Virus record (IMG/VR): IMGVR_UViG_3300047497_000008
Coordinates: 1 to 57,004 of that record
DNA from: a virus
Strand: one strand, 5' to 3'
Length of the DNA: 57,004 nt
Shown here: piece after piece, positions 1 to 28,189 of the stretch
Layout of the letters: every line of letters starts with the position of its first letter
How positions within the stretch are numbered: position 1 is the first letter of the stretch
The notes under the pieces: model-generated
The model's database searches: none
What the model saw: the letters and a program-made list of their open reading frames with translations, nothing else
Told to the model about the DNA's origin: nothing
Position numbers and translations under genes: made by a program

Positions 1-127
1 GAACTTAGTTCCGGGGTGTCATTCTCTGCCACGTTGGATTTCCTATTTGAGCGAGCGCGCGATGGATCGATAGTGTTCGGCCACTGCGGCGCAGAACTCG
101 TGCCTCGGAAGACCTGTCGAAAAGAAA
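1..127. repeat. Terminal overlap copy 1, identical to 56878-57004 (circular contig closure)
   Basis: Direct reading: gaacttagttccggggtgtcattctc...ctgtcgaaaagaaa is present at both ends. ORFs continue across the junction. Confidence 0.95.
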
Positions 128-339
128 TCCGATACACTGCCCGATCCCCAAATCGCCGGGTTATCCGCCGCGCGCGCTACTTCGAGTCGGGCTTCGTTCG
201 CGCCGAGATAGCGAACCGCGTCTCCAAAGACTAGGTGAACCAAATCCGCGCTCGGATTGTGAAGCACCGCGACGCCGTCCGCAAACCTTGCGCTCACAAA
301 AAGCTCTGTGCGCTTCCTTATGATGTTTATGTCGGTCAT
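43..339 (-). CDS. hypothetical early protein
   Basis: The track ORF 43..348 starts at TTG. ATG 339 has GGGAGA about 10 nt upstream. Its stop lies 10 nt before the start of the 56358..56909 gene across the junction. Confidence 0.6.
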   Translation of the reverse strand: MTDINIIRKRTELFVSARFADGVAVLHNPSADLVHLVFGDAVRYLGANEARLEVARAADNPAIWGSGSVSDFFSTGLPRHEFCAAVAEHYRSIARSLK

Positions 340-390: not shown

Positions 391-403
391 GGAACTTAGT
401 TCC
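391..403. repeat. GGAACTTAGTTCC palindrome
   Basis: Intergenic, 52 nt upstream of ATG 339. Confidence 0.95.
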
Positions 404-417: not shown

Positions 418-786
418 TTAGAGACCGCCGATGCTTTCGTCGGGCTCCTCCAGAAGCTTCGCGTTGCACGCCTCCACGAAAGCATCCCAGTTGGGCTTCT
501 TGTCGTCGGCGAGAAGCGCCTTGAGATTGCCGCCGCCGTGCTCCTGAATGAGTGCGACCGCCGCCTCGGCGCCATGCTTGTCCTTGACCGCGCGAGCGGC
601 CTCCTGAACCTGTGCCGCCGTGTGCTTCGTCACAGCCGCCTCCTTGGGAGGCTTTGACGCGGTCGACTTGCCGGACGCGGCCGGTGCGGCAGATCCGGCA
701 GATCCGGGCGTGGCGCCCTTCAGCAGTGCTTCCGTGTTCTTGTTGATCGCTGCCGTGAGCGACTTGATATCATCTTCAAGTGCCAT
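418..786 (-). CDS. hypothetical Ala/Lys-rich early protein
   Basis: 122-aa ORF with ATG at 786 and GGAGA 9 nt upstream. It is the first gene of the leftward unit, next to the divergent promoter region. Confidence 0.7.
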   Translation of the reverse strand: MALEDDIKSLTAAINKNTEALLKGATPGSAGSAAPAASGKSTASKPPKEAAVTKHTAAQVQEAARAVKDKHGAEAAVALIQEHGGGNLKALLADDKKPNWDAFVEACNAKLLEEPDESIGGL

Positions 787-1251: not shown

Positions 1252-3771
1252 ATGGCAGTACCGGGGGAAAGCGCCTTCATGGCGCTCTACGCACTCGACG
1301 CCGTAGAAAACGGGTACGAAATCGTACCGATAAAGCTGGACTCCAAGGCTCCAGTGTTTGCAGAGTGGCAAAAAGTACCAAGTAATAAGAAGACGGTGCA
1401 AAACTGGATACCGCAATACGGGCGAAACGGTTTTGGCATCCGAACAAAACTCACTCCAGGCGTAGATATAGACTGTCTTGACGCCGATCTGGTCGAGCAA
1501 ATGGTCGATTTCGTGCAATGCGAAGTCGGATTCGGCCCTGTCCGCGTTGGAAAAGCGCCAAAAACCCTTCTCGTCTACCGATCGTCGGTCCCGTTCAAGA
1601 AGGTGTCGAGCAAGGTTTGGGTTGATGAGTGGTTACAGGAAAACAAGGTTGAAATTCTCGGCGACGGGCAGCAATTTGTCGCTTACGGCATTCACCCCGG
1701 CACGAAAGCGCCCTATCGATGGATCGGCCGCGACACGCCTCTAGTAACGGCGGCTGGGAAGCTCTGTGAGATCACACAAGAGCAAGCGCGAGCGATCTGC
1801 GCCGAGTTTGACCGGCTGGCCGAGCTGAAAGGCTGGGAGCCGAAGCGAAACACGTCGCCGCAGCTCACGAACGGCCACCTGCGCGATCCCGACGACGTGT
1901 TCTTGAGCGATACGCCGATCGCCGATATCTCGTCAGAACAGCTTAGGGCGAAACTGTTCTCGATCCCGAATGATCCGATGGAGGGTGAACAGGATTACGA
2001 TACTTGGACGAACATCGGTATGGCGTTGCACCACCAATTCGACGGCGCCGACGAAGGATACGATCTTTGGGTTGAGTGGTCGGAACAATCGAGCAAGCAC
2101 GAAATCGGGCAGAACGAATACAAGTGGCCGTCGTTCAAGCATGACGAGAGCCGGGCGCCGATCACGGCGCGGTACATCATAAAACTGGCCGGCGAGTTTG
2201 AAGCCGAAGAGATCCGCGAACAGAAAGCCTCGATCGAGCAACTACTGGCAAACGCGTTGAACGCGCAGCACATAAAAGAGCTATGCGCCAAAGTCAAAGA
2301 AGTGAAGTTGGACGACTTCGACAGATCCGAGCTGCAAAAGCGAATCCAAAAACGCTACAAGGATCTGACCGGCCACGTTCTCACGAGCGCCGAAGTCCGC
2401 AAGCTCACGCGATACGAACAGCCGGGCGACTTGCTCCGGGCAAGTCACAAATGGCTTGAGGATTGGGTTTTCATTTCGGGTGAAGGTAGGTTCCAGCAGC
2501 TCAACGGCGACCCGTTGGCATTGAGCCGAGAAGCGTTCAATCTCGCGTTCGCGCATAAGCTGTTGACGCCGACTGAAATCGCCGAAGGCCAGTCCGTGCC
2601 GAGCGTGGAGCCATCCACCTTCGCGATAACGAATTACGGAATCCCAGTCGTCAACGCGATGATCTATGCACCCGATCAGGACCGGGTTTTCACGCGTGAC
2701 GGCGTGCAGTACGGCAACACCTATTCGGAAGCTGGCCGGGCCGTCATACCGGAACTAAGTTCCGCACGCGACCGTGAGAACGTCAAGCTGGTCGAGAAGC
2801 ATTTCGAGCATCTTATCGAAGACGAACTAGAGCGCGAAATGTTCAAATCGTGGATTGCTTGGGTCGTTCGCAAACCCGGCAACCGCGTGAAATGGGCTGT
2901 CCTGTTGCAAGGCGCCAAGGGTATCGGCAAGACGACTCTTTTCAACTTGTTCGAGGCGATCCTTGGCGAGTCCAATTGTCAGGCCGTCAGCAACGATGAC
3001 CTGAAGGGCGTCTATAACGAATGGGCGATGAAGTCGCTGGTGTTCGTGGAGGAAGTGAAGGCGCAAGGGTCACAGTACGACGTGTTGAGCCGTCTCCAGA
3101 TATTCATTACTAATGACAAGATCCCAATCCGGCGTATGCGTATTGCCCCGTTCAATGTTCGGAATTATGCGAGCTATCTGTTGACGACAAATCGTGTGAA
3201 CGCGTTACCGTTAAGTGAGGACGAGAATCGTTACTACGTCATCTTCTCACGGTGGCAGGAATCCAACGCCGAAGAGTACGCCGCGTGGGCGGCCGAGAAT
3301 CCCAAATACTTCGATCGACTTCGCCGGGCGATCAGCGAATCTCCGGGCGCGTTGCTCAAGTGGTTCTCAAATATGAAACTGCACCCGAAGTTCAATCCGC
3401 ACGGTCGCGCGATCAAGTCGGAAGGTCGCGATACGATGGTGAGTCTGGAGACAGGCGAGAAGTCGTCGGCGCTGGCGGCATTGCTCGCGGAAGGCGAACC
3501 CGGCATGAACGCGGAGCTGATAAGTTCCACGAATCTACGCCAGCTTATCGGCGAAAACCTGCTCGAGATCCCGTTGACGGGCGGCGGCTGGCGCAACACT
3601 TTGATCGACGCGGGGCTCCGGCCACTAGGTCAAGTGCGGCTGGAGGGCCGATTTGGACCCCAAGAAACCTACTGGAGTCGCACCCCAAAACGCTTCAAAA
3701 ACCTCGATCTAAGCCCGAATTTGGACCTGATGCGAAAGACCCTCGGGATAAAGTCGCCGTCAAGTAGTTAA
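1252..3771 (+). CDS. bifunctional primase-polymerase / D5-P4-type replicative helicase
   Basis: 839 aa. AEP/prim-pol-like motifs: GVDIDCLD, VEILGDGQQFVAYGIHPGT. PriCT-like segment: YDTWTNIGMALHH...GYDLWVEWS. P-loop: LLQGAKGIGKTTLFN. Walker B-like: LVFVEEV. Confidence 0.9.
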   Translation: MAVPGESAFMALYALDAVENGYEIVPIKLDSKAPVFAEWQKVPSNKKTVQNWIPQYGRNGFGIRTKLTPGVDIDCLDADLVEQMVDFVQCEVGFGPVRVGKAPKTLLVYRSSVPFKKVSSKVWVDEWLQENKVEILGDGQQFVAYGIHPGTKAPYRWIGRDTPLVTAAGKLCEITQEQARAICAEFDRLAELKGWEPKRNTSPQLTNGHLRDPDDVFLSDTPIADISSEQLRAKLFSIPNDPMEGEQDYDTWTNIGMALHHQFDGADEGYDLWVEWSEQSSKHEIGQNEYKWPSFKHDESRAPITARYIIKLAGEFEAEEIREQKASIEQLLANALNAQHIKELCAKVKEVKLDDFDRSELQKRIQKRYKDLTGHVLTSAEVRKLTRYEQPGDLLRASHKWLEDWVFISGEGRFQQLNGDPLALSREAFNLAFAHKLLTPTEIAEGQSVPSVEPSTFAITNYGIPVVNAMIYAPDQDRVFTRDGVQYGNTYSEAGRAVIPELSSARDRENVKLVEKHFEHLIEDELEREMFKSWIAWVVRKPGNRVKWAVLLQGAKGIGKTTLFNLFEAILGESNCQAVSNDDLKGVYNEWAMKSLVFVEEVKAQGSQYDVLSRLQIFITNDKIPIRRMRIAPFNVRNYASYLLTTNRVNALPLSEDENRYYVIFSRWQESNAEEYAAWAAENPKYFDRLRRAISESPGALLKWFSNMKLHPKFNPHGRAIKSEGRDTMVSLETGEKSSALAALLAEGEPGMNAELISSTNLRQLIGENLLEIPLTGGGWRNTLIDAGLRPLGQVRLEGRFGPQETYWSRTPKRFKNLDLSPNLDLMRKTLGIKSPSSS
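2751..2763. repeat. GGAACTAAGTTCC palindrome
   Basis: Inside the primase-helicase gene, read as PELSS. Confidence 0.95.
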
Positions 3772-4928: not shown

Positions 4929-4941
4929 GGAACTTAGTTCC
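4929..4941. repeat. GGAACTTAGTTCC palindrome
   Basis: Lies between the stop of 4953..5159 and its terminator. Confidence 0.95.
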
Positions 4942-4952: not shown

Positions 4953-5159
4953 CTATGGGCGACACTCTCGCATGATATCATCCGAACGCCAGTCACACTC
5001 GGGAAGGGCTTGATACCGAGCTACCGACGCCGCAATCGATCGCTGTTGATCGATATGGCGATGATAGCTGTCAGCGTAATCCGTACCGACGAAAAGCAGC
5101 ATGAGAACGACGGTGGCGATTCCTAGCGTTCCGATGATCGCCGCGCTTGGGCTTTCCAT
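4953..5159 (-). CDS. small membrane protein
   Basis: Hydrophobic helix AAIIGTLGIATVVLMLLFVG. ATG 5159 has GGGAGAG upstream. The track ORF starts at GTG 5168. Confidence 0.5.
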   Translation of the reverse strand: MESPSAAIIGTLGIATVVLMLLFVGTDYADSYHRHIDQQRSIAASVARYQALPECDWRSDDIMRECRP

Positions 5160-5161
5160 GA

Positions 5162-5377
5162 TCAGCACTCTCCCATGACGCGGCCGTTTTCACCCCATAC
5201 GAACCACTTGTTACCGTTGGACGTCACGATGTGGAAGCCTTCCACCCACCAGTCGCTACCGCGTTCCGCGCTTATGATTCGTGTTCCCGACAACCGCCAT
5301 CTGGCCTCCATCGCTAAGACATAATCTATAGCGGCGTCATGAGACGGGACGAACAATTCGGCGACATACTCAGACAT
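5162..5377 (-). CDS. hypothetical protein
   Basis: 71-aa ORF with AGGAG 7 nt upstream of ATG 5377. Confidence 0.6.
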   Translation of the reverse strand: MSEYVAELFVPSHDAAIDYVLAMEARWRLSGTRIISAERGSDWWVEGFHIVTSNGNKWFVWGENGRVMGEC

Positions 5378-5542: not shown

Positions 5543-5555
5543 GGAACTTAGTTCC
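5543..5555. repeat. GGAACTTAGTTCC palindrome (17-bp TCGGAACTTAGTTCCGA)
   Basis: Lies between the stop of 5567..6007 and its terminator. Confidence 0.95.
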
Positions 5556-5566: not shown

Positions 5567-6007
5567 CTAGGACGCGACTCCTGACGCTAGGCTGTTAAGC
5601 CGTAGCAGGCCCAGATCATGCTGTAACAGCGTTTTAAGGTAGCGCTGTAGAGCGCGCCGCAACACTGGTCGGCATGGTCCCGACACCTTTACCGAGATCC
5701 CGTCGAATAACGGCTTTACCGTCGCGAAATTCGACGCGTGGAATCCCGCTTTCTCGTCTCGGAAATAGAGCGCAATCGTGATCCGAGACTCGTCGGAATG
5801 CTTTAGATCGATCGTTCCGCGAATCGCTTTAGTCGTTAGATCCGGCTCGGGATAGATCACATGATTCAGATAATCCGCTTCGAGTCTGTGAATCTCAGAT
5901 CTCATGGCGTTTGCTCGTTCAGGATAATTGTTATCCCGTAGCGTACGGTACGCAATAACGAGTTTATGTATCTGCCGTATTAGCGTGATATCTTTCGACG
6001 CGTACAT
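5567..6007 (-). CDS. hypothetical protein
   Basis: 146-aa ORF with AAGGAG 9 nt upstream of ATG 6007. Confidence 0.65.
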   Translation of the reverse strand: MYASKDITLIRQIHKLVIAYRTLRDNNYPERANAMRSEIHRLEADYLNHVIYPEPDLTTKAIRGTIDLKHSDESRITIALYFRDEKAGFHASNFATVKPLFDGISVKVSGPCRPVLRRALQRYLKTLLQHDLGLLRLNSLASGVAS

Positions 6008-8021: not shown

Positions 8022-9263
8022 CTACTCGATATTGAAGGGAACGACGATTCCGAATGGTGCTGTATCGTCACCAGTCGAAAGCCAAAGAACGGGATAGGTC
8101 GGAACGATTGACGGAAAAGACCCGTACAGATCCGTCAAGTAAATCAGGCAATCGGGATCTTGTCCGAACCCTGATATCTCGTCAAAAACAGGCTCAAATC
8201 TTGTCCCTCCCGTTTCTGTGATTTCCAGCGTCACGGGATAATCGTTTGGCGTAAACTGGACAACGCCAGATACGCGGGAGTGACAGTAGATCACTGTCAC
8301 CAGATCCGGCTTGACGTCTTCAAGTACCGCGTTAACCATCCCTGAGAACGCGTCTAGCTGTATCCTGCCGATCGATCCGCTCGTATCAACTGCGATCACG
8401 ATATGACCGGGACGTTCCGTGACCATGGATGGCAGATAGAGATTATGCGCGATATAGCGGCGATTAGGCCGCGCTAGGCTGTAATCCGATTTGACCTGCG
8501 ACGTCACGAAATCACGCAACAGGGCAGCCGGATCAACGGGAGGATGTTTTACGCTGTTCAGGATGGCGCGTGTTAACGCGTTTCCCTGTCCGCGCTTTTC
8601 GGCCGCGTTCGCGGCTTGCTCCGCCGCGATCTTCCAATCGCCTGCATCGGGTATCGGATCGCCTTCGGAAGTCATTCCGTCCGGCGCCGGTCGCATGCCG
8701 CCGAACGAGTCAGATGGCTCATCCGATGGCGCGTCGCCATCGCCACCAGCGTCGCTAGGAGCGTCACCAGACGCGCCATCGTCCGATTGGCTATCATCGC
8801 CGCCGGCATCGTCTTCCGCCTCTGTACGCTCATCCTGTTGCGACTGAGAGGGCGCCTTGTCCTGTAGCAGCATGCGATACACGGTATCGGCTGATTTCCC
8901 GGTAAACCGCGAGTCTATCAACACATCCGAGGGTAGCGCAAAGCCGGCTTGTAGGATCATAGGGTTGATCACGTAATCGCATGCACGGTTCCATGTCTCA
9001 TGATCGCGCGTCTTGAGTCGCGAGATATGATCGAAAGCGCAATGCATGACTTCGTGGCAAACGAGTCCCTGAGTTTCGGGAAGACTCAAGGAGTCTATGA
9101 AACTCGGATTGTAACGGAGCGTGACTCCATCCACATCCGCCGTGGGGATATCCGTGCATTCTTCTAACCTAAGACGCAACGCCAAGATCCCGAAGAACAC
9201 CTGACTTTGAACCATTCCGGTTCTCGCCTTAACGAGTTTATGCAAAGCAGTGAGACGTTCCAT
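8022..9263 (-). CDS. VWA-domain protein with N-terminal HExxH metallopeptidase-like domain (DUF2201-type)
   Basis: HEVMHCAFDH in the N-terminal half, an acidic linker, and the MIDAS-like IAVDTSGSI. ATG 9263 has AGGAG 7 nt upstream. The track extension to 9326 only adds the palindrome. Confidence 0.8.
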   Translation of the reverse strand: MERLTALHKLVKARTGMVQSQVFFGILALRLRLEECTDIPTADVDGVTLRYNPSFIDSLSLPETQGLVCHEVMHCAFDHISRLKTRDHETWNRACDYVINPMILQAGFALPSDVLIDSRFTGKSADTVYRMLLQDKAPSQSQQDERTEAEDDAGGDDSQSDDGASGDAPSDAGGDGDAPSDEPSDSFGGMRPAPDGMTSEGDPIPDAGDWKIAAEQAANAAEKRGQGNALTRAILNSVKHPPVDPAALLRDFVTSQVKSDYSLARPNRRYIAHNLYLPSMVTERPGHIVIAVDTSGSIGRIQLDAFSGMVNAVLEDVKPDLVTVIYCHSRVSGVVQFTPNDYPVTLEITETGGTRFEPVFDEISGFGQDPDCLIYLTDLYGSFPSIVPTYPVLWLSTGDDTAPFGIVVPFNIE

Positions 9264-9305
9264 ACCGTGACTCCTGTAGGTTAATCGGTTCCAGAAATGC
9301 GCGTC

Positions 9306-9318
9306 GGAACTTAGTTCC
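9306..9318. repeat. GGAACTTAGTTCC palindrome
   Basis: Intergenic, 43 nt upstream of ATG 9263 (VWA gene). Confidence 0.95.
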
Positions 9319-9338
9319 GCGCGCATCTTAGCAAACGA

Positions 9339-10220
9339 CTAGTAGCAATCTTGCATCGACTCCATGATCGTTTTAGCCGACTCCAGAACTTCCATGCGTA
9401 CCGTTTCATCCTCCCGTAGTGTCTCGGGATCGTAAACACAAAGCCGATCCTGCATTTGTGAAACGAGACTTGCGATTCGCGGATCGTCGGTGAAGTTCAA
9501 ACCCGGCAGCCGTTCCACTAGATCGCGGATGTTTTCCACCAGCGTATCGGCGAACCTATTCTTACGTTTGCCTTCCGCCGTGACTTCAAACTTGGAGAGC
9601 CGTTCCACCATTGTCGAGACACAATCGACAATGCCGCCGTCACGGGTGAGCAGATCCCGTATCGCCATATCCGCCGTCGTGTTGATCCGAGACTCTATGT
9701 CCGTCCTGATTCGCTCGATTTCGTCGGATTGCAAGTTGACGCGGAAGTCAGGTGCTTGCGGCAACGGCATAACGGACGTCGAGAACGCGAATTTCCGCTC
9801 GATTCGGGAGATAGGCGGATAATCGCTCGAGTCGAATGCAGATCCGAGATTCGTCCGTGCTACACGGACGGCTTGCTGATAGTCGCCGAGAAATTCAAGA
9901 ACCGAGTTTTCATAGTCGTTCTTAAACGCGCGCATCGCCTCGATATATTTGAGATAGTTCGCCGCTGGCAAGATTCGGTATCCCGAGTCCGCCCAAGGTA
10001 AAGTCATTTTATAGTGGTAGGTTCGCGCATTGCCGCGTGCCTTTTCGACCGCTTTCAACGACTCGGAATCGACTAGGCTTTTCCAGACTCGCAGATGCCC
10101 ATCTTTCGCGCCTTTCGACGCGATGATTTCGGCCGTGGAGTCTTTGTCCAGTTTGCCGCCGGACCATGCAGAGATAGAGAGGAATATGAGCATCGTCTTA
10201 GACGCTAAATCGATTGCCAT
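9339..10220 (-). CDS. hypothetical protein (possibly DUF3150-like), middle gene of the ATPase/VWA cassette
   Basis: 293-aa ORF with the GAAGGAGCCTGAATCATG cassette. The family guess is from memory only. Confidence 0.7.
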   Translation of the reverse strand: MAIDLASKTMLIFLSISAWSGGKLDKDSTAEIIASKGAKDGHLRVWKSLVDSESLKAVEKARGNARTYHYKMTLPWADSGYRILPAANYLKYIEAMRAFKNDYENSVLEFLGDYQQAVRVARTNLGSAFDSSDYPPISRIERKFAFSTSVMPLPQAPDFRVNLQSDEIERIRTDIESRINTTADMAIRDLLTRDGGIVDCVSTMVERLSKFEVTAEGKRKNRFADTLVENIRDLVERLPGLNFTDDPRIASLVSQMQDRLCVYDPETLREDETVRMEVLESAKTIMESMQDCY

Positions 10221-10553: not shown

Positions 10554-11615
10554 TCAGATCAGAATGTCAGAATGCTTGGAACCCCAGGCGATGAACGCGG
10601 GAGTCGATGCCAGGGCGCCGTTTGCCGCCACAGCGGACGTTACTAGAAACGCCGCTATCTCCGGCGCCATCCGCTCCGCATATCGGAGCACGGTCGCAAA
10701 GTTCTCGTCTGTCGCATTCCGGGCCAGCATTCCCGCGCAAGCGAATAGGACGGAGGGATCTGTCGGGACGTCGATCCCCTCTGGATCGCGTAGGATCGAC
10801 GCTAGCCGTGGCATGCGATCCGCCACGCGCATGAAACCGAGAAACTCGATCGCGACGCTCCTACCGATGGTCCCCTCGATCAGCTCGCGTTCGATTCCCG
10901 CGCGCGGGAACGGCACGTCACGACCCTCGGTCGCATCGTACCGCGCCATGCAATCCGCCGACTCATGGAGCGTGTCAGATACCGCATGCCATGTGCGCGG
11001 AGACGGGAAAGCGTCGGCGAGGGGATCGAACGCGTAGAACACGGACTGATTCTTGTGTTCCCGGAACTGTAGGAAGGCCGGGACCATCGGGTGAATGCCA
11101 ACCGTCGCCGCCCATTCACACCATTGGGCGAGATCCGGCTCTAGGCTGACAACCTGCATACGGGATAGGACAGTTGCAGGGAGTCGCGTGCCGTTCACTC
11201 TGTCGGATAGGAGATTCGCGGCCGCAATAATCGTTACGTTGTCACCGAGTCTGTGACCGTGGCTCTGACGCGTATGGATGACATTCATTAACGCGTTTAG
11301 GACAGCCGGCGTTGCCTTGTCCAGCTCGTCGAAGAACAGGATTACGTGTTCATCGGAACTAAGTTCCGGCATGATGACCGGTCGCAGGTAAGTCAGCCGA
11401 TCCCCTACAGGATACGGAAGACCTCCCGCGTCAACGGGATCGAGGCGAGCCGCCTCATAGACATAGACCCGCGCGTTGTTCAGGATCTTGGCGGCGGCAA
11501 ACGGTACCGCGCTCTTGCCTGTCGCGGGAGATCCCCTTAGCAGGATCGGACGGCGACGCGCGACAGGGGATCTCGCCCTATCGCATACCATGTCAATAGC
11601 TTCATTCGGTTTCAT
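10554..11615 (-). CDS. AAA+ ATPase, MoxR/CbbQ (AAA_5)-like
   Basis: Walker A LLRGSPATGKS and Walker B VILFFDELDKA. 353 aa with an AAGGAG RBS. Confidence 0.85.
   Translation of the reverse strand: MKPNEAIDMVCDRARSPVARRRPILLRGSPATGKSAVPFAAAKILNNARVYVYEAARLDPVDAGGLPYPVGDRLTYLRPVIMPELSSDEHVILFFDELDKATPAVLNALMNVIHTRQSHGHRLGDNVTIIAAANLLSDRVNGTRLPATVLSRMQVVSLEPDLAQWCEWAATVGIHPMVPAFLQFREHKNQSVFYAFDPLADAFPSPRTWHAVSDTLHESADCMARYDATEGRDVPFPRAGIERELIEGTIGRSVAIEFLGFMRVADRMPRLASILRDPEGIDVPTDPSVLFACAGMLARNATDENFATVLRYAERMAPEIAAFLVTSAVAANGALASTPAFIAWGSKHSDILI
11355..11367. repeat. GGAACTAAGTTCC palindrome
   Basis: Inside the AAA+ ATPase gene, read as PELSS just before Walker B. Confidence 0.95.
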
Positions 11616-12427: not shown

Positions 12428-12919
12428 ATGGACGCATTTTCGTATGGCTGCGGGATCGTCACCGTCTACGGAGTAGGTCTCGCCGCCTCAATATACTCGT
12501 TCTGGAGGGACGGGGATCGACCGCGCAAACGCAAAACCAAAGTCGATCCACCTGACGCGAACCACACCTATTTAAGCCGCAACGTCGAGGACGCTGCCGG
12601 CGTCGATCGCGCGGTTCTCGGCGTGCAGCTCGCTTATTGGCGCAACCAGTGGGGTGTGATGAGTCAGCCGCAACGGCTGTACATGGCGGCGCGACTGGCC
12701 GGACACGATCACGATTTCGCCGCGGCGCAGGCGATGCTCAACGCGCATGTGCATATCGAGGATTTCGTCAAGCGCGGAGAACCGACCAGCTCGCCAGGAG
12801 TCAACGAGCCGATCGGTTCTCTATCGACGGACGCCGCCGATACAGCGCCGTCTCGCGTCACGGGTGATGAAGCGCCCGACGAGCGAAATACTAGATGGCC
12901 GAAAGATCCCCGTCAATGA
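12428..12919 (+). CDS. hypothetical protein with N-terminal TM helix
   Basis: ATG 12428 has AGGAG 10 nt upstream. N-terminus: MDAFSYGCGIVTVYGVGLAASIYSFW. Confidence 0.6.
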   Translation: MDAFSYGCGIVTVYGVGLAASIYSFWRDGDRPRKRKTKVDPPDANHTYLSRNVEDAAGVDRAVLGVQLAYWRNQWGVMSQPQRLYMAARLAGHDHDFAAAQAMLNAHVHIEDFVKRGEPTSSPGVNEPIGSLSTDAADTAPSRVTGDEAPDERNTRWPKDPRQ

Positions 12920-13146
12920 GTTTGAACCAACAGATAGAGTTCCTGAGATACGCGTTACGGAACAACCTCTTAACTCGTTCTTATAAGCCTTGCACAAGAT
13001 GCAAAGGTGAGGCTCGCGGGCCGTGGGGCGGATTGACTCCGTGGGGAACGCTTATTGTGGTTCCGTGTCCGGCGTGCGACGGAAAAGGTTACGTCGAGAA
13101 TAATTCAACCGAAGCGAAAAATGTTCTTGACGGCAAGTCCGTTTAG
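12895..13146 (+). CDS. small DnaJ-type zinc-finger protein
   Basis: CTRCKGEARG...CPACDGKGYV, which gives CxxCxGxG motifs. Confidence 0.6.
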   Translation: MAERSPSMSLNQQIEFLRYALRNNLLTRSYKPCTRCKGEARGPWGGLTPWGTLIVVPCPACDGKGYVENNSTEAKNVLDGKSV

Positions 13147-13184: not shown

Positions 13185-13197
13185 GGAACTTAGTTCC
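13185..13197. repeat. GGAACTTAGTTCC palindrome (19-bp TTCGGAACTTAGTTCCGAA, 13182-13200)
   Basis: Intergenic, 26 nt upstream of ATG 13223. Confidence 0.95.
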
Positions 13198-13222: not shown

Positions 13223-13510
13223 ATGGACTCCAAGACTCTACGGGCTCTCCGCTCAAGGGAAAGCATTTGTCTCGAAAACGAGACGAACGACCCGGCCACC
13301 GTCAGCATCGTGCAAGCGAACGTGTCGGAGGGGTTGGAGCTGATCCGATCGCTATCTGATCGTGGCGTAGGCGATCCGCTGCTCGCTGCTTTGGCCTTCG
13401 CCGTGCAACACGTTTCTGACTCCGTTCGTCTTATCCCGAACGGCAGCGAGGCGTATGTCGTTCTCAAGATCAAAAGGGGTGCGCCGGAAACCCGGAGTAG
13501 CATGCGATGA
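13223..13510 (+). CDS. hypothetical protein
   Basis: ATG 13223 is preceded by AAGGAG. The track extension to 13178 only covers the palindrome. Confidence 0.55.
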   Translation: MDSKTLRALRSRESICLENETNDPATVSIVQANVSEGLELIRSLSDRGVGDPLLAALAFAVQHVSDSVRLIPNGSEAYVVLKIKRGAPETRSSMR

Positions 13511-14860: not shown

Positions 14861-15058
14861 ATGAGTCGGTATCTAGGAGCACGTACCAAGTTCACGTTGA
14901 GAATCCCGCTTGAGCTGCATGTTACGCTTACCAGATCCGCCACGTGGCTTGGCGTACCGCTCAACGATTACATCATAAAGCGTTTACGTGAGGTAGAAGG
15001 AACATATGTCAGTGCCGAAATCACCGAGACCCCGCAAACCGCGCGCCAAAAAATCTAA
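14861..15058 (+). CDS. Arc/MetJ-type ribbon-helix-helix DNA-binding protein
   Basis: FTLRIPLELHVTLTRSATWLGVPLNDYIIKRL reads as a beta strand plus two helices. The stop lies 3 nt before the 19-bp palindrome 15061-15079. Confidence 0.65.
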   Translation: MSRYLGARTKFTLRIPLELHVTLTRSATWLGVPLNDYIIKRLREVEGTYVSAEITETPQTARQKI

Positions 15059-15063: not shown

Positions 15064-15076
15064 GGAACTTAGTTCC
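15064..15076. repeat. GGAACTTAGTTCC palindrome (19-bp CTCGGAACTTAGTTCCGAG, 15061-15079)
   Basis: The 19-bp form starts 3 nt after the Arc-like gene stop. The core lies 8 nt upstream of ATG 15084. Confidence 0.95.
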
Positions 15077-15083: not shown

Positions 15084-15290
15084 ATGAGGTTCCCATTCGA
15101 GCGTGGTTTCCGGGCCGCGTTACTGCTGACGGCGAGCAAGTGTGCCGCTTCTATCCCGTGCTACAATCGCGTGACGGAGCGGTGGGCTTTCGATGGAGCG
15201 CGAGACGCGTTCGATCGGTATTTGCAACGTGAGTTCCGCGCATTCGCGGAGCGACTGAGAGGATCGCCCGATGGCAAAACCACTGCTTGA
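15084..15290 (+). CDS. hypothetical protein
   Basis: ATG 15084 lies 8 nt after the palindrome and the RBS is weak. The track ORF 15006..15290 overlaps the Arc-like gene. Confidence 0.45.
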   Translation: MRFPFERGFRAALLLTASKCAASIPCYNRVTERWAFDGARDAFDRYLQREFRAFAERLRGSPDGKTTA

Positions 15291-15685: not shown

Positions 15686-16069
15686 ATGCCGAAAGACGAT
15701 ATGAACAAGCCGACGTATCTGGTGGCGTTTCGCACGTTTCCACGCGCTCTTGCTGCCGTCGATCGTCACATGCGAGCACATGCAATCAAGCACGGCGACA
15801 ATCCGCGAGAATTTCTCAATGTTCAAGACGGATACCGTCGATACAGTGAAGCGCTGTTGCGGCACGTCGGCCGAATCGGCGAAGGCTCCGCGCTCGCTCA
15901 TGCGGTCGCGGTTGCCGCCAACGCGTTGATCGCACTTGAGATTGCCCTGGAGCATGACACGTTGGAACCAAGTTCCGAGGCGCAACAGCTCACGCTCGAT
16001 CGTGCCGCGTTCCTCAAGGATCGATACGACGGCGTGCCGGGCGGCGATCACCCGAACGGAAAAATCTGA
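15686..16069 (+). CDS. helical NTP-diphosphohydrolase-like protein (DUF5664-type, tentative)
   Basis: AGGGGGAG RBS. AIKHGDNPREFLNV..YRRYSEALLRHVGRI..ALAHAVAVAANALIALE resembles the KYG..NW..RH..H pattern. Confidence 0.5.
   Translation: MPKDDMNKPTYLVAFRTFPRALAAVDRHMRAHAIKHGDNPREFLNVQDGYRRYSEALLRHVGRIGEGSALAHAVAVAANALIALEIALEHDTLEPSSEAQQLTLDRAAFLKDRYDGVPGGDHPNGKI
15964..15976. repeat. GGAACCAAGTTCC degenerate copy
   Basis: Inside gene 15686..16069. The 5-bp arms GGAAC/GTTCC are kept. Confidence 0.5.
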
Positions 16070-16159: not shown

Positions 16160-17296
16160 ATGCCCGACACCGCTGGCGAAGCAACCGCCGGAATCGATGT
16201 TCCGTCCATTCTCACTCACATGGGCGCCGTCAAGCGCAACTATTGGATGGCCGATCTGGACATGATCCACATCCGGCCGGATTTCAACAAGCGGGACAAG
16301 AAAGATCCCGAGTATGGCGCGCATATCGATCTGCTCACGCGCAACATGCTGGAGGAAGGCTTTCGCGAAGACCGGCCGCTGCTTGTCAAGATCGCCAACG
16401 TCTCCGGTCTCGATCGCCTCGTGCTGGTGGATGGAGAGTCCCGTATGCTCGCCGTCGCCAAGGCCAACGAGTCGCTGCCCGAGGAACGCAAGATCGTCGC
16501 CGTCCCGATCATCGTCAAAACGGACCTGACGCCCGAAGAAGAGCTGCTGACCATGGTTCGCTCGAATCAAGGGCGTCCGTTTACGCCGATCGAGCTGGGA
16601 TCGGTGATCGTGGATTACATGAACCTGCCCACGGCTACCGGTGAAAAGCGCGGCGACAACGAAGTGGCGGCGCAGTTCAACGTGACTCCGCGCTACATCA
16701 ACGATCTGCTCCTGCTCGCCAAGGCACCGAAGTACCTCAAGGATCTCGTCGCGGCTGGCACCGTTTCCAGTACGCTCGTTCGTGAAGAGCTGCGCGCCGA
16801 CCCGAAGAAGGCCACTGCCCGGTTCAAGGAAGCCGTCGCCGCCATGAAGGCGGCGGGCAAGGACAAGATCACGAAGAAGTACCTGCTGAAAGCGGGCGCG
16901 GAGACGCCGGCCGAAGGAGAGCCGCCTGTCGTCAAGTCGTACAAGCTGAACGACGCGGATTTCCCGAAGGCCGCGATCCAATACGCCCTGGATACCATGA
17001 TTCACGGCGAAGATCCGACGGCACAGCTCCTGTGGCTGGATGCCTGGAGCAGCGGCGACACGGAAGCCGTCGCCGATCTGGAGAAATACAAGGGCTGGCC
17101 GGCTGGGAGCACGAACAACCCGAAGGCTCGCACGGTCAAGCCGCCCAAGAAGGCTCGCAAGCCCAAGGCGCCGAAGGAAGGCACCAAGGCGGCCGAGAAC
17201 GTCAAGAAGGACACCGCTGCCGCCGCGAAGACGCCCGGCAGGCGGAAGCCCCAGGCGACGGCGCCCGCCGCCGACGACGGACTCGCCGGGCTCTAA
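16160..17296 (+). CDS. ParB/KorB-family protein (N-terminal ParB/Srx domain + HTH + basic tail); no ParA partner
   Basis: AGGAGG RBS. N-domain IHIRPDFNKR and LVLVDGESRMLAV (GxxR box). HTH region RSNQGRPFTPIELG...VAAQFNVTPRYINDLLLLAKAP. K/P/A-rich C-terminus. Confidence 0.85.
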   Translation: MPDTAGEATAGIDVPSILTHMGAVKRNYWMADLDMIHIRPDFNKRDKKDPEYGAHIDLLTRNMLEEGFREDRPLLVKIANVSGLDRLVLVDGESRMLAVAKANESLPEERKIVAVPIIVKTDLTPEEELLTMVRSNQGRPFTPIELGSVIVDYMNLPTATGEKRGDNEVAAQFNVTPRYINDLLLLAKAPKYLKDLVAAGTVSSTLVREELRADPKKATARFKEAVAAMKAAGKDKITKKYLLKAGAETPAEGEPPVVKSYKLNDADFPKAAIQYALDTMIHGEDPTAQLLWLDAWSSGDTEAVADLEKYKGWPAGSTNNPKARTVKPPKKARKPKAPKEGTKAAENVKKDTAAAAKTPGRRKPQATAPAADDGLAGL

Positions 17297-18057: not shown

Positions 18058-18229
18058 ATATCCACCGAACCGCGCCGATGCGCTATTCTGGATCATCGTT
18101 ACGCTCGTGATGATTCTGTTTTTTATTTTCATCGCGGCCACGTTCGTCTTTCTGCTTACGCCGACGTGCTCGCTGTCGCCGTATCACGCCGAGCTGAATC
18201 GGCTACCGGGCGAGTGGAGTCCACCATGA
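17978..18229 (+). CDS. small membrane protein
   Basis: GGAGGGAGA RBS. TM segment ALFWIIVTLVMILFFIFIAATFVFLL. It overlaps the SLOG gene's 3' end by 80 nt. Confidence 0.45.
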   Translation: MWKSSPSRLESSWHGRNTNPEKLVPIKYPPNRADALFWIIVTLVMILFFIFIAATFVFLLTPTCSLSPYHAELNRLPGEWSPP

Positions 18230-18447
18230 GCGGCTATCTGGTACGTTGCTACGGCAAGCAATACTCCCTCTATCATGATGAGGCGCCGACGATCAAAGAC
18301 GGTCGTACGCCGGCCGGCGAGCTGGTAGACCCCGGCTACCCGAAAAAGATACCCGATCGATATGCGCGCCTGTCGTTCAAGGCGATCGTCGGCCTCGACA
18401 TGGCGTGCCAACTTGAGGACAAGGAAAAGGCGCCGAAAGGCGCCTGA
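18226..18447 (+). CDS. hypothetical protein (last gene of the plus-strand block)
   Basis: ATGA overlap with the upstream stop. 73 aa. Confidence 0.55.
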   Translation: MSGYLVRCYGKQYSLYHDEAPTIKDGRTPAGELVDPGYPKKIPDRYARLSFKAIVGLDMACQLEDKEKAPKGA

Positions 18448-18455: not shown

Positions 18456-18468
18456 GGAACTTAGTTCC
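18456..18468. repeat. GGAACTTAGTTCC palindrome (+GAGTGT flank)
   Basis: The only structured element in the 27-nt convergent gap between the plus and minus operon ends. Confidence 0.95.
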
Positions 18469-18474: not shown

Positions 18475-18891
18475 CTAATGTACAGATCCGTAAACGACGT
18501 TTGATGTTGCGACCTGGACCTGCACTTTCTGAAGATCCTTCACGATACCGTCGAGCCATTTCGCGGACTCGGCAGTAACGAGTTCCGGGGTTTCCGCGCT
18601 ACAGAACTTCGTCCCGTATGCGTTGAGGCTCGCGACAACCTCGGACGCCGGCACAAGCCCGGCAGCTCCGGGGATATACTTCCCGACGAGCCCGGCACCG
18701 TCCGTCAACGCGGACACGATCGGCGAGCCGTATGCCTCCCATTGGCCGCACATACCGGACTCGAACTTGGACACTTTGGCCGCTCCCGCGTCGATCGCCG
18801 CCGTGTCCGTCTCGACTTGTTCCGGCGTCAGCGCGCACCCTGCAAGGGTGAACGCCAACGCGAGAACCAGTGCGACACGAAACCCGTTCAC
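18475..18891 (-). CDS. lipoprotein (last gene of the late operon)
   Basis: GTG start overlaps the upstream stop (GTGA). Signal peptide with lipobox: MNGFRVALVLALAFTLAG|C. Confidence 0.7.
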   Translation of the reverse strand: MNGFRVALVLALAFTLAGCALTPEQVETDTAAIDAGAAKVSKFESGMCGQWEAYGSPIVSALTDGAGLVGKYIPGAAGLVPASEVVASLNAYGTKFCSAETPELVTAESAKWLDGIVKDLQKVQVQVATSNVVYGSVH

Positions 18892-20759: not shown

Positions 20760-21251
20760 CTACGTGATGATTGCTTGCTTGTAGGTATCGTATGCTTGGA
20801 CTGCGCTCGTCATGGATTTGGTAACTTCCTCGATCGTCGCGGCGCCCAACACCGTGTTGTAAACTCGTTTGTAGTAAGCCGCGAGTGCTGGAGCGTCTCC
20901 CGCGTCGGGCAGCGGCGCCGGATCGACATAATACCTGAGTCGGCACAGCGCGCACGCAAGATACAGATTCCCCGGTAGCTGCGCCAGCGCGGACACCGAA
21001 GGCATCGCAAACGCGGCCAGCTTCTCGGCGAACCGCTCTGGCACACGCGCATAGAGATCCGCTACGGTAGCCGGCTCCAACTGCCACGGCGACACGGCTG
21101 GACCGCGTATCTGGATCAGGTACGTCCCGGCGTTTGACTCCTGAATTGCGGTTCCCAGCACGAGCTGTTCCGCTGCCGGGCTGTCGAGCATTAGATACGT
21201 CAGCGTAGGAGCGATGACCGCCTGAAGCAGTTGCGAGAGGTCGATACCCAT
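20760..21251 (-). CDS. putative endolysin (lytic transglycosylase-like)
   Basis: GTAIQESNAG resembles the SLT catalytic E-S motif. It lies between two membrane-protein genes. Confidence 0.5.
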   Translation of the reverse strand: MGIDLSQLLQAVIAPTLTYLMLDSPAAEQLVLGTAIQESNAGTYLIQIRGPAVSPWQLEPATVADLYARVPERFAEKLAAFAMPSVSALAQLPGNLYLACALCRLRYYVDPAPLPDAGDAPALAAYYKRVYNTVLGAATIEEVTKSMTSAVQAYDTYKQAIIT

Positions 21252-21252: not shown

Positions 21253-21265
21253 GGAACTAAGTTCC
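21253..21265. repeat. GGAACTAAGTTCC palindrome
   Basis: Its centre supplies the TAG stop of 21257..21514. It ends 2 nt before ATG 21251. Confidence 0.95.
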
Positions 21266-21514
21266 TTGTGTTGGCGGCGCGGCGGGAGGGAGCTTGTCGG
21301 CAGTCGTGAGGGAGCGGCCCACGATGCCGACAATCAGGACTCCGACCGTCACGCGGATGATTAAGTGGTAAGGAAGTTCCGCCTTGATATCGTCCGGTAG
21401 AACTTCAAGCGAACTGAGAAGCGCGATGCTCGCGGCCATCGCTTGAGTGGAAACGTAAGAGAAAATCCGATGTGCGTTCGGGATAAACCGAATATCTAGC
21501 GGGTTCAAATTCAC
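21257..21514 (-). CDS. small two-TM membrane protein (holin candidate)
   Basis: GTG start with AGGAG 7 nt upstream. Its TAG stop is the centre of the palindrome at 21253-21265. Confidence 0.5.
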   Translation of the reverse strand: MNLNPLDIRFIPNAHRIFSYVSTQAMAASIALLSSLEVLPDDIKAELPYHLIIRVTVGVLIVGIVGRSLTTADKLPPAAPPTQGT

Positions 21515-21570: not shown

Positions 21571-24420
21571 TCAAACCCGAAGATTTACTATGACGCCTTG
21601 TACGGATTCATAGTTGCCTTCGATTGGCATATTTCGTGCCGTCGTACCAATTTCGCACGCGGCGATGTACGGCCACGTTCCGGGCGTGGCGACGAGACCG
21701 CTCCCGCTCGGATAGAGCGCGCTACCCTGCACGAGTTCATCGCCGGAGTTGGTCTGCTTGACGAACACGGCGGCTCCGCGCTTATACACGGGCGCTAGCG
21801 GATAGTAGTCCGTTCTTGTCGTTCCGTTGATCCCAGGTGCCGCCGCCACGCCGCCCGGAGGATTCGTGCCGTATTGAGCACCGAGCTGATAGGAGCCTTG
21901 GTGATAAACGACGTCGCCTCGCGCGAGCGTCGCCGACGCGGTAACGAAGATGCCGTCGCCGGACATCCCATCGAAACGCGTGTTGGCGTTCTCGCCGTTA
22001 TTGTACGGCCCCATCAGCATGATCGGAGCGACGGCTTCGTTGCAGGATAGAATCGTACTGTCGTCTCGCCACGAGCATCCGCCACCGCCGCCGATGATGA
22101 TCGCCACGATAGCGCCCGTTCTCGGAATGATACTGTAGCATGTCGTTCCTTCGGGAATCGTTTGTGCCGTGTCCATTTCATAGACGCCGGTCGATATCTC
22201 GCTCAGGATCTTGGTGCCCCACTCGACGCCGATTCCGCCCAGCCAATCGCCGACCGTGAGCGATCCAGACTCGACGGTGTAGGTCGTTCCTGTCGAGTGG
22301 CCGACTACCTTGGAACGAATTTGCGCGTAACCGCCGGTCTGCGTCCGGTCGAACTGCGTATCGAAGAGGTTGCCGCTCCTCAAGTCGAACACCGCGACCG
22401 GCTTGGGCGCACCCGAGCTTTGATCTATGTAGTCGTCGTAAGTCGCGCCGACAGTCCACGTGCCACCCATGGTGAATTTGTTGCTCCCATAAACGCCGTT
22501 GAGGAAACCGCAATTGCCCGCGCTTTCGAGCGCGATAATTCCAGACGTATTGGTTACGGCGTCGTTCACGGGATTGGTTAGATTGCCGCTGCTGTCTGGC
22601 AGCTCTTTGTGGATACCGATCGGGCCAAACCCCAGGGAAAGGCCGTTCCAGATATTCGAGTCGAACGATGCCGATGCCGCAATCGCCATCGAGGCCCAAT
22701 ACGACGACGCCAATTCGACGTTTTTCATGTTTACGCCGCCGTTCGTAATCATCCACGGCTCCGCATAACAGTTCTTGTAGTTCGCCGCCGAAGAAACATC
22801 CTCGATGTATATGTGATCGCCGTTGATGCCGAAGCCGACGCCGAAGCCCTGGAACGCAGCGCGAGCGACGGTGTTGCGACCGCCCACGCCCAACCCCGTC
22901 ATTTGGGCGCCTTGTACGCCGACCGTGTGACCGCCCGGCCCCGCCATGAAGAAGTTGGCGTAACGCGTTCTCAGGTACGCCGGCCCGCGCACAGGAGACC
23001 CGAGGCCGAACCGATCCACGCCTAGATCAGTCTGCCAGCTAAACGCCGTTCCGTAAGCGCCCAGCCCCTCGACGTCGAACATGCCATAGATCAGCCCAGA
23101 CGGAACGAGAATCGTATCGTTGAAGAAGAACGACGATCCACCGAAGACGACTTTGCGCCCGAAGCCACTGGCGATATAGCAGGCTTGCGCGATGGCTGTC
23201 TGCGCGCCGAACGTGTCGAGTGACAGGGCACCGAATTGTGCCGGCGACACGCGAAACGTGATCGTCTCGCCCGACGCGATGGGCGCGGTCAGCTCGTTTG
23301 ACAGAACGATCGAACCGTAACCGGCAGATCCGAACACACTGTTAAACGAGACGAGCGTCGTGCCGTTCGGAATGCCGGCGCCTGAAACACCCATGCCCGC
23401 CTTGAGCAGCATGTAACGCTTGAGCGGGTTCTGCCACTGCGCCACGTTGGCGCTCCATCCGCCCGTGCCCGACAAGGCGTCGAGAAAATAGAGCTGCGTG
23501 TCGCCTTCGCTCGCTGCCGCGCTTACGGTTCCGGTAAACAGGCGCCCGAACAAATAGCCGTGAGTCGGATCGGTCAGATACGCGTATGGCGTGGCGCCAT
23601 TGACGACGATCGCCGCCATGGACTCCAGCGTGTCGTATTGCGATGGATACTTGTCGGCGATCGTGTTGCCGGATTGATTGCCGGTGCCGTCGCCGAGCGC
23701 GCCGAACTCGCAAACGTCGAAGATGATCGACGCACGCGTTGAAGGCTTGCGCGGCTTGACCGCACCATCGGCGATCAACGGCGCGTTGGATTGGCTCGTA
23801 TCCGTGAAGTCGAGCGTCACAGCGCCTTCGCTGCCGCTTACGTCGGCACCTGTTATCACCATGCTCGTTACATTGGTGATCGGCGCTCCGGCGCCCGTGA
23901 TGCTCAACGTGGCGCCAGACACACCGGCTAGATCCAGCGTGGCCGCGCCGTCCGATCCTGTAAGACTTCCGCCGCCCGTCACCGTCAAATCAGTTACGGA
24001 GTCAACCGTAGTGGCTCCAACTGTGACAGTGACACCGTTATTGCTGGATGCGTCTTCCGACCAGCTCGTTCCAGTCCAAACGAGAGTCGCGTGAAGTGTT
24101 TGATCCCAGGATTTCCAGCCGACGCGCGGACGGTAGAACACCCAAGCGCCGAGCCGCCATACGGCGAGCTGCGTATCCTTGCCGGCCCACGCGCCCGTGG
24201 CGCCGGCTGCCACGATGTAGCGTTGACCGTCGATCGGATTCGACGGCGGCGCGGTCAAAACACTCGATAAAGTCGATAAGTTTATCACGGCGCCGAGTCG
24301 TTCCAGCGCACCATTCATGCCGCCAGCGTTCCCGTCTGCCACGTCGGGCGGCACCGTCGAGAACGCGTCTCCGTCCGCGTATCCTGTCGGCAATCCTAGA
24401 TTTGGTTCCTGACTCGCCAT
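21571..24420 (-). CDS. tail fibre/tailspike with DUF2793-like N-terminal anchor and beta-helix (pectate-lyase-like) domain
   Basis: 949 aa. The N-terminal roughly 120 aa are paralogous to 24466..25623. FDVCEFGALGDGTGNQSG is typical of the start of tailspike beta-helices. Confidence 0.8.
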   Translation of the reverse strand: MASQEPNLGLPTGYADGDAFSTVPPDVADGNAGGMNGALERLGAVINLSTLSSVLTAPPSNPIDGQRYIVAAGATGAWAGKDTQLAVWRLGAWVFYRPRVGWKSWDQTLHATLVWTGTSWSEDASSNNGVTVTVGATTVDSVTDLTVTGGGSLTGSDGAATLDLAGVSGATLSITGAGAPITNVTSMVITGADVSGSEGAVTLDFTDTSQSNAPLIADGAVKPRKPSTRASIIFDVCEFGALGDGTGNQSGNTIADKYPSQYDTLESMAAIVVNGATPYAYLTDPTHGYLFGRLFTGTVSAAASEGDTQLYFLDALSGTGGWSANVAQWQNPLKRYMLLKAGMGVSGAGIPNGTTLVSFNSVFGSAGYGSIVLSNELTAPIASGETITFRVSPAQFGALSLDTFGAQTAIAQACYIASGFGRKVVFGGSSFFFNDTILVPSGLIYGMFDVEGLGAYGTAFSWQTDLGVDRFGLGSPVRGPAYLRTRYANFFMAGPGGHTVGVQGAQMTGLGVGGRNTVARAAFQGFGVGFGINGDHIYIEDVSSAANYKNCYAEPWMITNGGVNMKNVELASSYWASMAIAASASFDSNIWNGLSLGFGPIGIHKELPDSSGNLTNPVNDAVTNTSGIIALESAGNCGFLNGVYGSNKFTMGGTWTVGATYDDYIDQSSGAPKPVAVFDLRSGNLFDTQFDRTQTGGYAQIRSKVVGHSTGTTYTVESGSLTVGDWLGGIGVEWGTKILSEISTGVYEMDTAQTIPEGTTCYSIIPRTGAIVAIIIGGGGGCSWRDDSTILSCNEAVAPIMLMGPYNNGENANTRFDGMSGDGIFVTASATLARGDVVYHQGSYQLGAQYGTNPPGGVAAAPGINGTTRTDYYPLAPVYKRGAAVFVKQTNSGDELVQGSALYPSGSGLVATPGTWPYIAACEIGTTARNMPIEGNYESVQGVIVNLRV

Positions 24421-28165: not shown

Positions 28166-28189
28166 GTGAACCGGACGGGCGCGTGTTTC

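Follow-up and report, generated by a model that had tools for sequence, protein, structure and literature searches.

The 57,004-nucleotide virus record IMGVR_UViG_3300047497_000008 of IMG/VR, analysed here over its whole length (the window), carries 20 exact copies of a 13-base-pair (bp) palindrome, GGAACTWAGTTCC, where dinucleotide-preserving shuffles carry 0. It also encodes, at 16160..17296 on the + strand, a 378-residue orphan protein that its sequence profile and predicted fold place with ParB and KorB, and that is our candidate binder of the sites. One copy of the palindrome, at 11355..11367, lies within the MoxR-type AAA+ ATPase gene at 10554..11615(-), where it is read as the peptide PELSS directly before the Walker B stretch VILFFDELD.

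The first and last 127 bases of the window (1-127 and 56878-57004) are identical, which we take to be the overlap of a circular assembly and not a biological terminal repeat, so that the true length of the genome is 56,877 bp; an independent assembly of the same phage, from run ERR9963793, has 56,872 bp. A copy of the palindrome cut short at base 1, in the window's first 12 bases, is the duplicated end of the site at 56877. TerL shares 58% identity with its counterparts in Salmonella phage Chi, Klebsiella Chi-like phages and Xanthomonas phage XAP3, and the gene layout agrees with that of Burkholderia phage BcepNazgul, which together identify a Chi-like siphovirus (Casjensviridae). No relative closer than 60% TerL identity was found among the GenBank phages, in IMG/VR or in the metagenome collection.

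Positions and sequence of the palindromes

All 20 exact copies lie where a preliminary description of this DNA had placed them. Ten are wholly within the 6.3% of the genome that is non-coding (binomial P = 1e-7), and these junction sites stand past a stop codon and ahead of the next ribosome-binding site. At 391..403 the palindrome, written GGAACTTAGTTCC, separates the stop of 418..786(-) from the start of 43..339(-). The copies at 4929..4941 and 5543..5555 follow the stops of 4953..5168(-) and 5567..6007(-), and each immediately precedes one of two near-identical, strong intrinsic terminators (4893-4920 and about 5507-5535; AATCCCGATAG..CTATCGGGATT with a T-run). The copy at 9306..9318 falls between 9339..10220(-) and the point at which the VWA/metallopeptidase gene (8022..~9263) truly begins, that at 13185..13197 between 12895..13146(+) and 13223..13510(+), that at 15064..15076 between 14861..15058(+) and 15084..15290(+), and that at 18456..18468 at a convergent junction, between 18226..18447(+) and 18475..18891(-). 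Farther along, the palindrome occupies the gaps between 24466..25623(-) and 21571..24420(-) (site 24447..24459), between the decoration gene 41630..42067(-) and the major capsid gene 40518..41567(-) (41611..41623), and between the single-stranded-DNA-binding gene 54339..54989(-) and 53858..54265(-) (54285..54297). An eleventh copy, at 21253..21265, provides a stop codon: its central TAG (- strand, 21257-21259) ends 21257..21514, and the ATG of 20760..21251 begins 1 nucleotide past the site. The preliminary description had called the gene so ended holin-like; the stop is real, and the label is unverifiable, the only family match being Pfam DUF7940.

The other copies are read as protein, in the frames and peptides that had been proposed for them. 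Besides the ATPase, PELSS is found in the prim-pol primase/helicase gene 1252..3771(+) (site 2751..2763, codons 500-504), the tape measure gene 31693..37011(-) (35878..35890) and gene 56358..56909(-) (56877..56889, codons 8-11), with LELSS in the Z-like tail gene 39110..39748(-) (39155..39167) and SELSS in the portal gene 43534..45252(-) (45202..45214, codons 13-17). The tail protein gene 29266..30663(-) has DGTKF (29487..29499), and the methyltransferase ends in RNLVP plus its stop codon at 49946..49958, where the site abuts the GTG start of the SNF2 helicase gene 48386..49945(-). RNLVP is again the peptide at 48292..48304, in the basic N-terminal extension of TerS (47583..48389(-)); there the proposed frame and peptide hold, with the site being coding solely under the 268-residue call of TerS.

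The 12 outer bases are the same at every exact site. When the 40 half-sites are pooled, a weaker extension to the 17-bp TCGGAACTWAGTTCCGA appears, with G at positions +-7 in 83% and A at +-8 in 58%, and nothing is conserved farther out. The predicted fold of the 17-mer is -7.7 kcal/mol. At three sites (9306, 29487 and 41611) the palindrome is prolonged by long GC-rich flanks, and these extended stems fold at between -20 and -24 kcal/mol. Two of the three are alike: the flanks are GATGCGCG..CGCGCAT at 9306 and GATGCGCG..CGCGCATC at 29487, so that 9290-9335 and 29470-29516 share a palindrome of ~33 bp (GATGCGCG-nn-site-nn-CGCGCATC; predicted hairpins of -21 to -24 kcal/mol), the one copy intergenic and the other covering 11 codons of the tail gene.

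Four variant copies accompany the exact ones. Two with a central C (GGAACTCAGTTCC, at 4493-4505 and 4523-4535) are carried by a 30-bp tandem repeat of 2.3 copies (4488-4557), within a ~1.2-kb non-coding, ori/cos-proximal stretch in which the cos ends of BcepNazgul lie; the independent Logan assembly of this phage is interrupted exactly at the repeat. The other two have one mismatch: GGAACCAAGTTCC at 15964..15976, 185 bp upstream of the ParB-like gene, and AGAACTTAGTTCC at 28190..28202, in the upstream extension of the open reading frame 27995..28252. Scans of viral contigs for the exact 13-mer gave chance singletons only, apart from a 4.3-kb AT-rich viral contig with two exact copies (222-234 and 3321-3333) in similar flanks, TTTTAGGAACTAAGTTCCGCTTA, which is probably an unrelated element. 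Reading the palindrome as the -35 element of an extracytoplasmic-function sigma factor promoter (GGAACTT) was tried and rejected, as a consistent -10 element is lacking and site orientation is independent of the genes.

Selection at the DNA level

Does selection act on the palindrome as DNA, or on the peptides that it encodes? The preliminary description had argued for the nucleic acid, and codon choice, homologue alignments, orthologous sites and conservation against decaying flanks all bear this out. The seven ELSS tetrapeptides of the proteome, against 0.33 expected from amino-acid composition, are without exception encoded GAA-CTW-AGT-TC(C/T), a codon choice whose chance is 0.0028 per occurrence, and both occurrences of RNLVP are encoded CGGAACTTAGTTCCG. 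In alignments with homologues the motif peptides occupy variable segments, such as the N-terminus of the portal, the residues of the Z-like protein that precede its conserved EF.R.F, and the TerS extension, which is specific to the window; the motif-free phages Chi, XAP3 and AH2 have unrelated residues in place of ELSS and RNLVP, and no structural conservation of ELSS was seen in unrelated homologues. GTKF at 29487 overlies a pre-existing DGT(K/R)(I/F). There are no indels or gaps at the coding sites, which indicates that the sites arose by substitution and not by insertion.

Relatives place their own versions of the palindrome at corresponding positions. The primase of Sphingomonas phage Carli has PEIIS, encoded GGAAATCATTTCC, at the same codons as the window site, and the BcepNazgul portal has SEVTS, encoded GGAAGTTACTTCC, at the codons of the orthologous site at 45202; in the Z-like gene, relatives have EVTS sites within about 9 nucleotides of the site at 39155. 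At four orthologous sites compared among diverged metagenomic relatives, 12 of the 13 bases are kept and the central base alone varies, while flank positions are invariant in just 4-54%. Selection at the DNA level on the palindromes is thus supported.

The sites also leave a mark on gene prediction. A series of N-terminal extensions had been described as spurious (8022..9326, 48386..50185, 13178.., 15006.. and 27995..28252); each spans a site or a variant site, and both independent gene calls and our own start downstream. Long reading frames pass through the sites because the ELSS frame is stop-free on both strands.

The spacing of the sites is more even than chance would give. The coefficient of variation of the gaps between window sites is 0.48, versus 0.94 for random placement (P = 0.0004), and is 0.27-0.6 in relatives, of which the densest (metagenomic loci L041, L071 and L044) have about one site per 1.0-1.3 kb. 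Long genes have internal sites. Taken together, the placement looks like a coverage requirement that is satisfied at the least cost to protein.

Related palindromes in other phages

Scans for k-mers turned up palindromes built in the same way in further phages. BcepNazgul has 18 copies of GAAGTWACTTC, Erythrobacter phage R16L has 25 copies of GAAGTNACTTC, sharing GAAGTWACTTC with BcepNazgul, and Carli has about 30 copies of GGAAAYSRTTTCC; in many uncultured relatives the forms are GGAAGTWACTTCC, GGAAGTSACTTCC and GGAAATSATTTCC. The TerL-related metagenomic loci numbered 160, of which 26, among them Ga0193731_1000011, were motif-positive, with no fewer than 4 sites and a density of 0.2 per kb or more; the remaining loci had 0.010 sites per kb, no more than chance gives. 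No sites occur in Chi, XAP3 or AH2. The palindrome is family-wide, and its half-site co-evolves. Since BcepNazgul and R16L share a motif and grow on hosts of different proteobacterial classes, Burkholderia and Erythrobacter, the reader of the sites should be phage-encoded.

In one relative (L045, IMGVR_UViG_3300048915_000028) GGAAGT, GGAACT and GGAAAT half-sites are freely combined, so that 9 of its 13 sites are non-complementary, and two further loci (L211 and L216) likewise mix half-site types within single sites. Self-complementarity is therefore not needed, as fits a protein dimer and not a hairpin. L045 may represent a relaxed-specificity or transitional state of the system.

Single-query searches of viral contigs with the primase, the window ParB or the R16L ParB gave no matches, and a word-based homologue search returned the query itself as its sole match. 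In the literature searched the motif strings are absent and such an arrangement of sites is not described, and neither the AH2/KL1 comparative paper nor the Chi genome paper mentions repeats or ParB.

The ParB-like protein

The product of 16160..17296 matches the PHROG 'ParB-like partition protein' family (E = 1e-39) and has 1,305 homologues in a library of 1.84 billion proteins. When a family profile was compared with solved structures, its N-terminal and helix-turn-helix (HTH) domains matched Spo0J (1vz0, E = 5e-9), Noc (2e-7), several ParBs and KorB (2e-4); 21 of 29 family members match Pfam HTH_ParB, and 17 match the KorB domain. An AlphaFold (AF2) model has a predicted local distance difference test score above 90 over residues 10-245, and in Foldseek its best match is the RK2 KorB-KorA-DNA complex 8qa9 (E = 3e-10, template modelling score 0.69), with further matches to Spo0J, Noc and ParBs bound to cytidine triphosphate (CTP); the E values of all these matches, KorB included, run from 3e-10 to 1e-6. 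The model also matches the KorB DNA-binding domain, 1r71. Judged by profile and model, the protein is a true relative of ParB, KorB and Noc, with a predicted ParB N-terminal (Srx-like) fold and a ParB-type HTH. Its features include FNKR and DGESR in the ParB N-terminal domain and an HTH, NEVAAQFNVTPRYINDLLLLAKAP. The C-terminal third is a disordered tail rich in Lys, Ala and Pro, suggesting additional non-specific contacts with DNA, and then an acidic C-terminus (..ADDGLAGL). The end peptide, ..ADD.L.GL (window residues 368-378), is conserved across the family alignment and looks like a short docking motif for a partner.

No ParA-type gene adjoins the ParB-like gene or occurs elsewhere in the window, where the sole AAA+ protein is MoxR-like, and the protein is therefore an orphan ParB. 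KorA was not found in Pfam and PHROG scans of the small window proteins, and no search was made beyond these. Around the gene is a cluster for nucleotide metabolism (13848-18057), with MazG-like (13848-14258), DUF1643 (14255-14857), dGTP_diPhyd_N (15686-16069) and deoxyribosyltransferase/SLOG-like (17566-18057) genes, a composition that hints at a possible modified base in the DNA of the virion.

Co-occurrence of gene and sites

Every window protein (about 75) was compared with six complete genomes. The ParB-like protein alone has homologues in all of the motif-bearing genomes (BcepNazgul, as gp29; R16L, as ORF_23; and Carli) and none in Chi and XAP3, and among 50,697 phage records no Chi-like phage has a homologue. 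All 14 viral loci with a ParB at least 43% identical to that of R16L carry 4-12 sites, these loci having been retrieved through ParB alignments. The recognition helix also goes with the sites: among loci with a readable helix, 18 of 20 with the form (T/S)xR(Y/H)(I/L) are motif-positive, and in the KKYV-helix group the sites are sparse and relaxed. Two other candidate markers were tried and rejected. The methyltransferase as cognate enzyme belongs to different PHROG families in the window and in L041, and the window enzyme is without a homologue in BcepNazgul and Carli; the MazG-like gene is one that the window has in common with L041, L071 and L044 only.

In a sister clade with a QYV helix (L223, at 11122-11572; also L222, L224 and L226), the ParB-like gene is followed, about 300 bp downstream, by a 15-bp unit, AAGGTYCGCGCYGYR, repeated 31 times in tandem, in what looks like a classical centromere-like array. 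A tandem array beside the gene indicates that the ParB-like family binds repeated DNA sites.

Other features of the genome

Directly after the prim-pol primase gene, 3790-4130 is an origin-like region in which iteron arrays on both strands surround an AT-rich core. The iterons are of ACCTAAGTAC and GTGCTTAGG types, and BcepNazgul and AH2 have a different iteron, AGGTCCGAAT, at the same place. A link between palindrome and origin was considered and rejected: the window iterons, CCTAAGTAC, share CTAAGT with the motif, but the iterons of BcepNazgul and AH2 are unlike GAAGTWACTTC, and because the BcepNazgul iteron is unrelated to the BcepNazgul motif, we treat the resemblance in the window as coincidence.

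An operon at 8022-11615 encodes the MoxR-type AAA+ ATPase, a 105-residue protein (10224-10541) that is without a family match, a DUF3150 protein and the VWA/metallopeptidase (DUF2201); BLAST gave no homologue of any of these in the six related phage genomes. Most of the small early proteins of the window are likewise ORFans, without a family match. The basic N-terminal extension of TerS (48230-48389) contains an AT-hook-like KRPVGRPPSKK and is missing in all aligned homologues. Neither an integrase or repressor nor other lysogeny genes were found in the window.

What reads the palindromes?

We propose, with a probability of roughly 0.6, that the palindromes are parS/OB-like loading sites recognised by the phage's own orphan KorB/ParB-like protein, allowing this clamp-type protein to cover the whole genome. 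The HTH domains of a dimer would read two GGAACT half-sites. If the N-terminal nucleotide switch acts as in ParB, KorB and Noc, the clamp would then close and slide or spread for about 1 kb from each site. Sites 1-3 kb apart would thereby load all of the phage chromosome and nothing else. On such a scheme the even spacing would follow, because a clamp of kilobase range must cover the whole genome. The same requirement would account for the crowding of sites into gene junctions as far as these allow, with overlap of stop and start codons, and for the choice, in long genes, of tolerant protein segments, mostly in the ELSS frame, which puts the central W at a silent third codon position. Candidate outcomes are genome-wide silencing or timing, as by KorB, compaction via the basic tail, and the marking of phage DNA as self for other enzymes.

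Several observations weigh against this proposal. The window protein itself is below the Pfam thresholds (KorB domain, E = 0.14), and in place of the GERR motif the window protein has DGESR and its family DGHxR, with G92 and R95 as the sole invariant residues, which makes CTP-clamp chemistry uncertain. AH2 has a ParB homologue (33% identity, PKYV helix) and zero sites, and two loci with an RYL-type helix, L212 and L217, hold one site each. The link between protein and sites, drawn from sequence comparison, is a correlation inside one phage family, in which shared descent inflates the counts; co-occurrence was scored on complete genomes and on loci retrieved through ParB, and the 26 TerL loci that are motif-positive do not enter into it. 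The three sites with long GC-rich palindromic extensions, and the two sites directly before intrinsic terminators, leave room for an RNA-level or DNA-structure component. Finally, neither of the window's divergent promoter regions (787-939 and 11616-11686) contains a site, which fits a classical operator role poorly.

Might some other factor, a phage regulator or a conserved host protein, bind the palindromes as operators or roadblocks, with the ParB-like gene merely travelling along? A precedent is the set of stoperators bound by gp71 of phage L5, which are 13 bp long, reportedly present in about 20-30 copies, and said to lie mostly in short intergenic gaps and to overlap start and stop codons. 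The sites of the window share with them the length, the dispersal in many copies across a phage genome, the clustering in short gaps and the overlap with stop and start codons. Further, AH2 has a ParB-like gene without sites, and an unrecognised binder could be among the ORFan early proteins. However, the L5 sites are asymmetric, oriented with transcription and recognised by a temperate phage's lysogenic repressor, whereas the present sites are palindromic, occur also in coding sequence, and have a central base whose orientation is independent of gene direction, in a window in which neither integrase nor repressor was found. A host-specific factor is difficult to reconcile with the same motif in phages of alpha- and beta-proteobacteria, and no other window gene has the matching phyletic pattern. 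We consider another binder unlikely, though the most credible of the alternatives.

A little less credible again is that a DNA-modifying or nicking enzyme (a site-specific nickase, a methyltransferase or an enzyme of base hypermodification) acts on the sites, with the ParB-like protein perhaps as its specificity or activator subunit, so that the palindromes would direct chemical marking and not clamp loading. About 10-20 conserved sites per genome are said to be typical of phage nick sites, as in T5, tf and phiKMV. A nick on one strand predicts a strand bias of the central base, and the bias is inconsistent: T is on the + strand at 10 of 10 intergenic window sites, but at unconstrained sites the ratio is 12 T : 4 A in the window and 3 T : 8 A in BcepNazgul in the same orientation, and W flips at orthologous sites. 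We therefore dropped the model of a one-strand nick or of replication direction. As for base modification, the ParB-like gene sits among nucleotide-metabolism genes (MazG-like, dGTP_diPhyd_N, DUF1643 and deoxyribosyltransferase-like), and the window has a methyltransferase gene. But that enzyme is without a homologue in the motif-positive BcepNazgul and Carli, no partner enzyme is common to the motif-bearing genomes, and a TET/JBP-type dioxygenase was not detected in the window. Phage-encoded orphan ParB-fold proteins that act on phage DNA are documented as activators of 5mYOX thymine dioxygenases on double-stranded DNA (PMC13229309); unlike the window protein with its HTH, these activators lack a DNA-binding domain, and they have no known dispersed long motif.

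A hairpin of RNA, or of single-stranded DNA, acting between genes as a signal for processing, stability or termination, with the in-gene copies as tolerated by-products, strikes us as improbable. Half of the 20 sites are intergenic, those at 4929 and 5543 abut terminators, and the folding energies given above would allow stems, strong ones at the three extended sites. Yet it is the sequence that is conserved, in the 12 identical outer bases, and not the pairing, which the mixed half-sites of L045, L211 and L216 break; most sites are without a U-tract, there is no Rfam match, and sites in coding regions persist at orthologous positions. That the palindrome is a selfish or mutationally spreading element without function for the phage, like a repetitive extragenic palindrome or a miniature inverted-repeat transposable element, is very improbable: it is short, palindromic and dispersed, and 9306 and 29487 share their ~33-bp palindromic context, but coding sites show no insertions in alignments, the spacing is regular and not clustered, and orthologous sites are retained across lineages with a changed half-site.

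Comparison with known ParB-family systems

The proposal that the palindromes load a ParB-like clamp has its closest parallel in KorB of RK2, a ~60-kb replicon with 12 copies of the OB operator, TTTAGCSGCTAAA. The phage protein resembles KorB in its ParB-family fold and HTH, KorB being its best structural match, and in an odd-centred palindromic operator present in multiple copies round the replicon, here 20 exact and 4 variant. The KorB sites are promoter-related, unlike the phage sites, none of which lies in a divergent promoter region, and KorB has the partners KorA and IncC, where for the phage protein no ParA partner was found, nor a KorA in the Pfam and PHROG scans of small proteins. The phage sites are also evenly spaced and written into coding sequence, with a density 2-5 times higher in the phage relatives; the replicon is a lytic-type phage genome; and the protein has DGESR or DGHxR in place of the arginine motif GERR, together with a disordered basic C-terminal tail. 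KorB, at its 16-bp operator, is a CTP-dependent sliding clamp that slides and silences over >1 kb (PMC11790492).

Noc of Bacillus, matched by profile and by fold, offers a second likeness, as an orphan ParB paralogue that spreads from dozens of dispersed palindromic sites. Noc is a chromosomal regulator of cell division with a membrane-targeting helix, whereas in the phage there is no hint of membrane tethering and site density per kb is far higher. With the ParABS systems, including those of phages P1 and N15, the similarity is in the protein fold and in a palindromic recognition site of 13-17 bp; in contrast, the phage is without ParA, and its sites are genome-wide and not a clustered centromere, as the array in the sister clade (L223) makes plain. 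Orphan ParB-fold proteins are widespread in phages, and a survey leaves their role open (PMC12704722).

A ParB-family protein with dispersed palindromic sites is thus already known, from KorB and Noc. What appears to be new is the lytic-type phage setting, how densely and regularly the sites are spaced, the mark that they leave on coding sequence, and the co-evolved series of variants.

Implications

If the pairing of protein and palindrome holds, these would be, to our knowledge, the first ParB/KorB-type loading sites to recur at regular distances of kilobases throughout the genome of a lytic-type phage, maintained by a selection so strong that amino-acid tetrapeptides and stop codons have become fixed in proteins unrelated to one another. 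The natural series of half-sites (GGAACT, GGAAGT, GGAAAY and mixed), together with the cultured phages BcepNazgul, R16L and Carli, would provide a handle on the evolution of ParB specificity, the range of the clamp and the role of orphan phage ParBs. There are practical consequences as well: false N-terminal extensions are created by the stop-free ELSS frame, sites occupy the positions at which ribosome-binding sites are expected, and recoding of such phages for engineering may silently destroy sites.

One may go further, tentatively, and suppose that a clade of Chi-like phages (Casjensviridae) runs a 'viral chromatin', in which a KorB-like ParB clamp, loaded from dozens of evenly spaced, co-evolving palindromes, even in essential genes, coats only the phage genome; we regard this as possible, with the odds somewhat against it. 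Were it true, these phages would have a label that distinguishes their own DNA from that of the host, and that might serve transcriptional timing, compaction, protection from host nucleases or the targeting of DNA-modifying enzymes.

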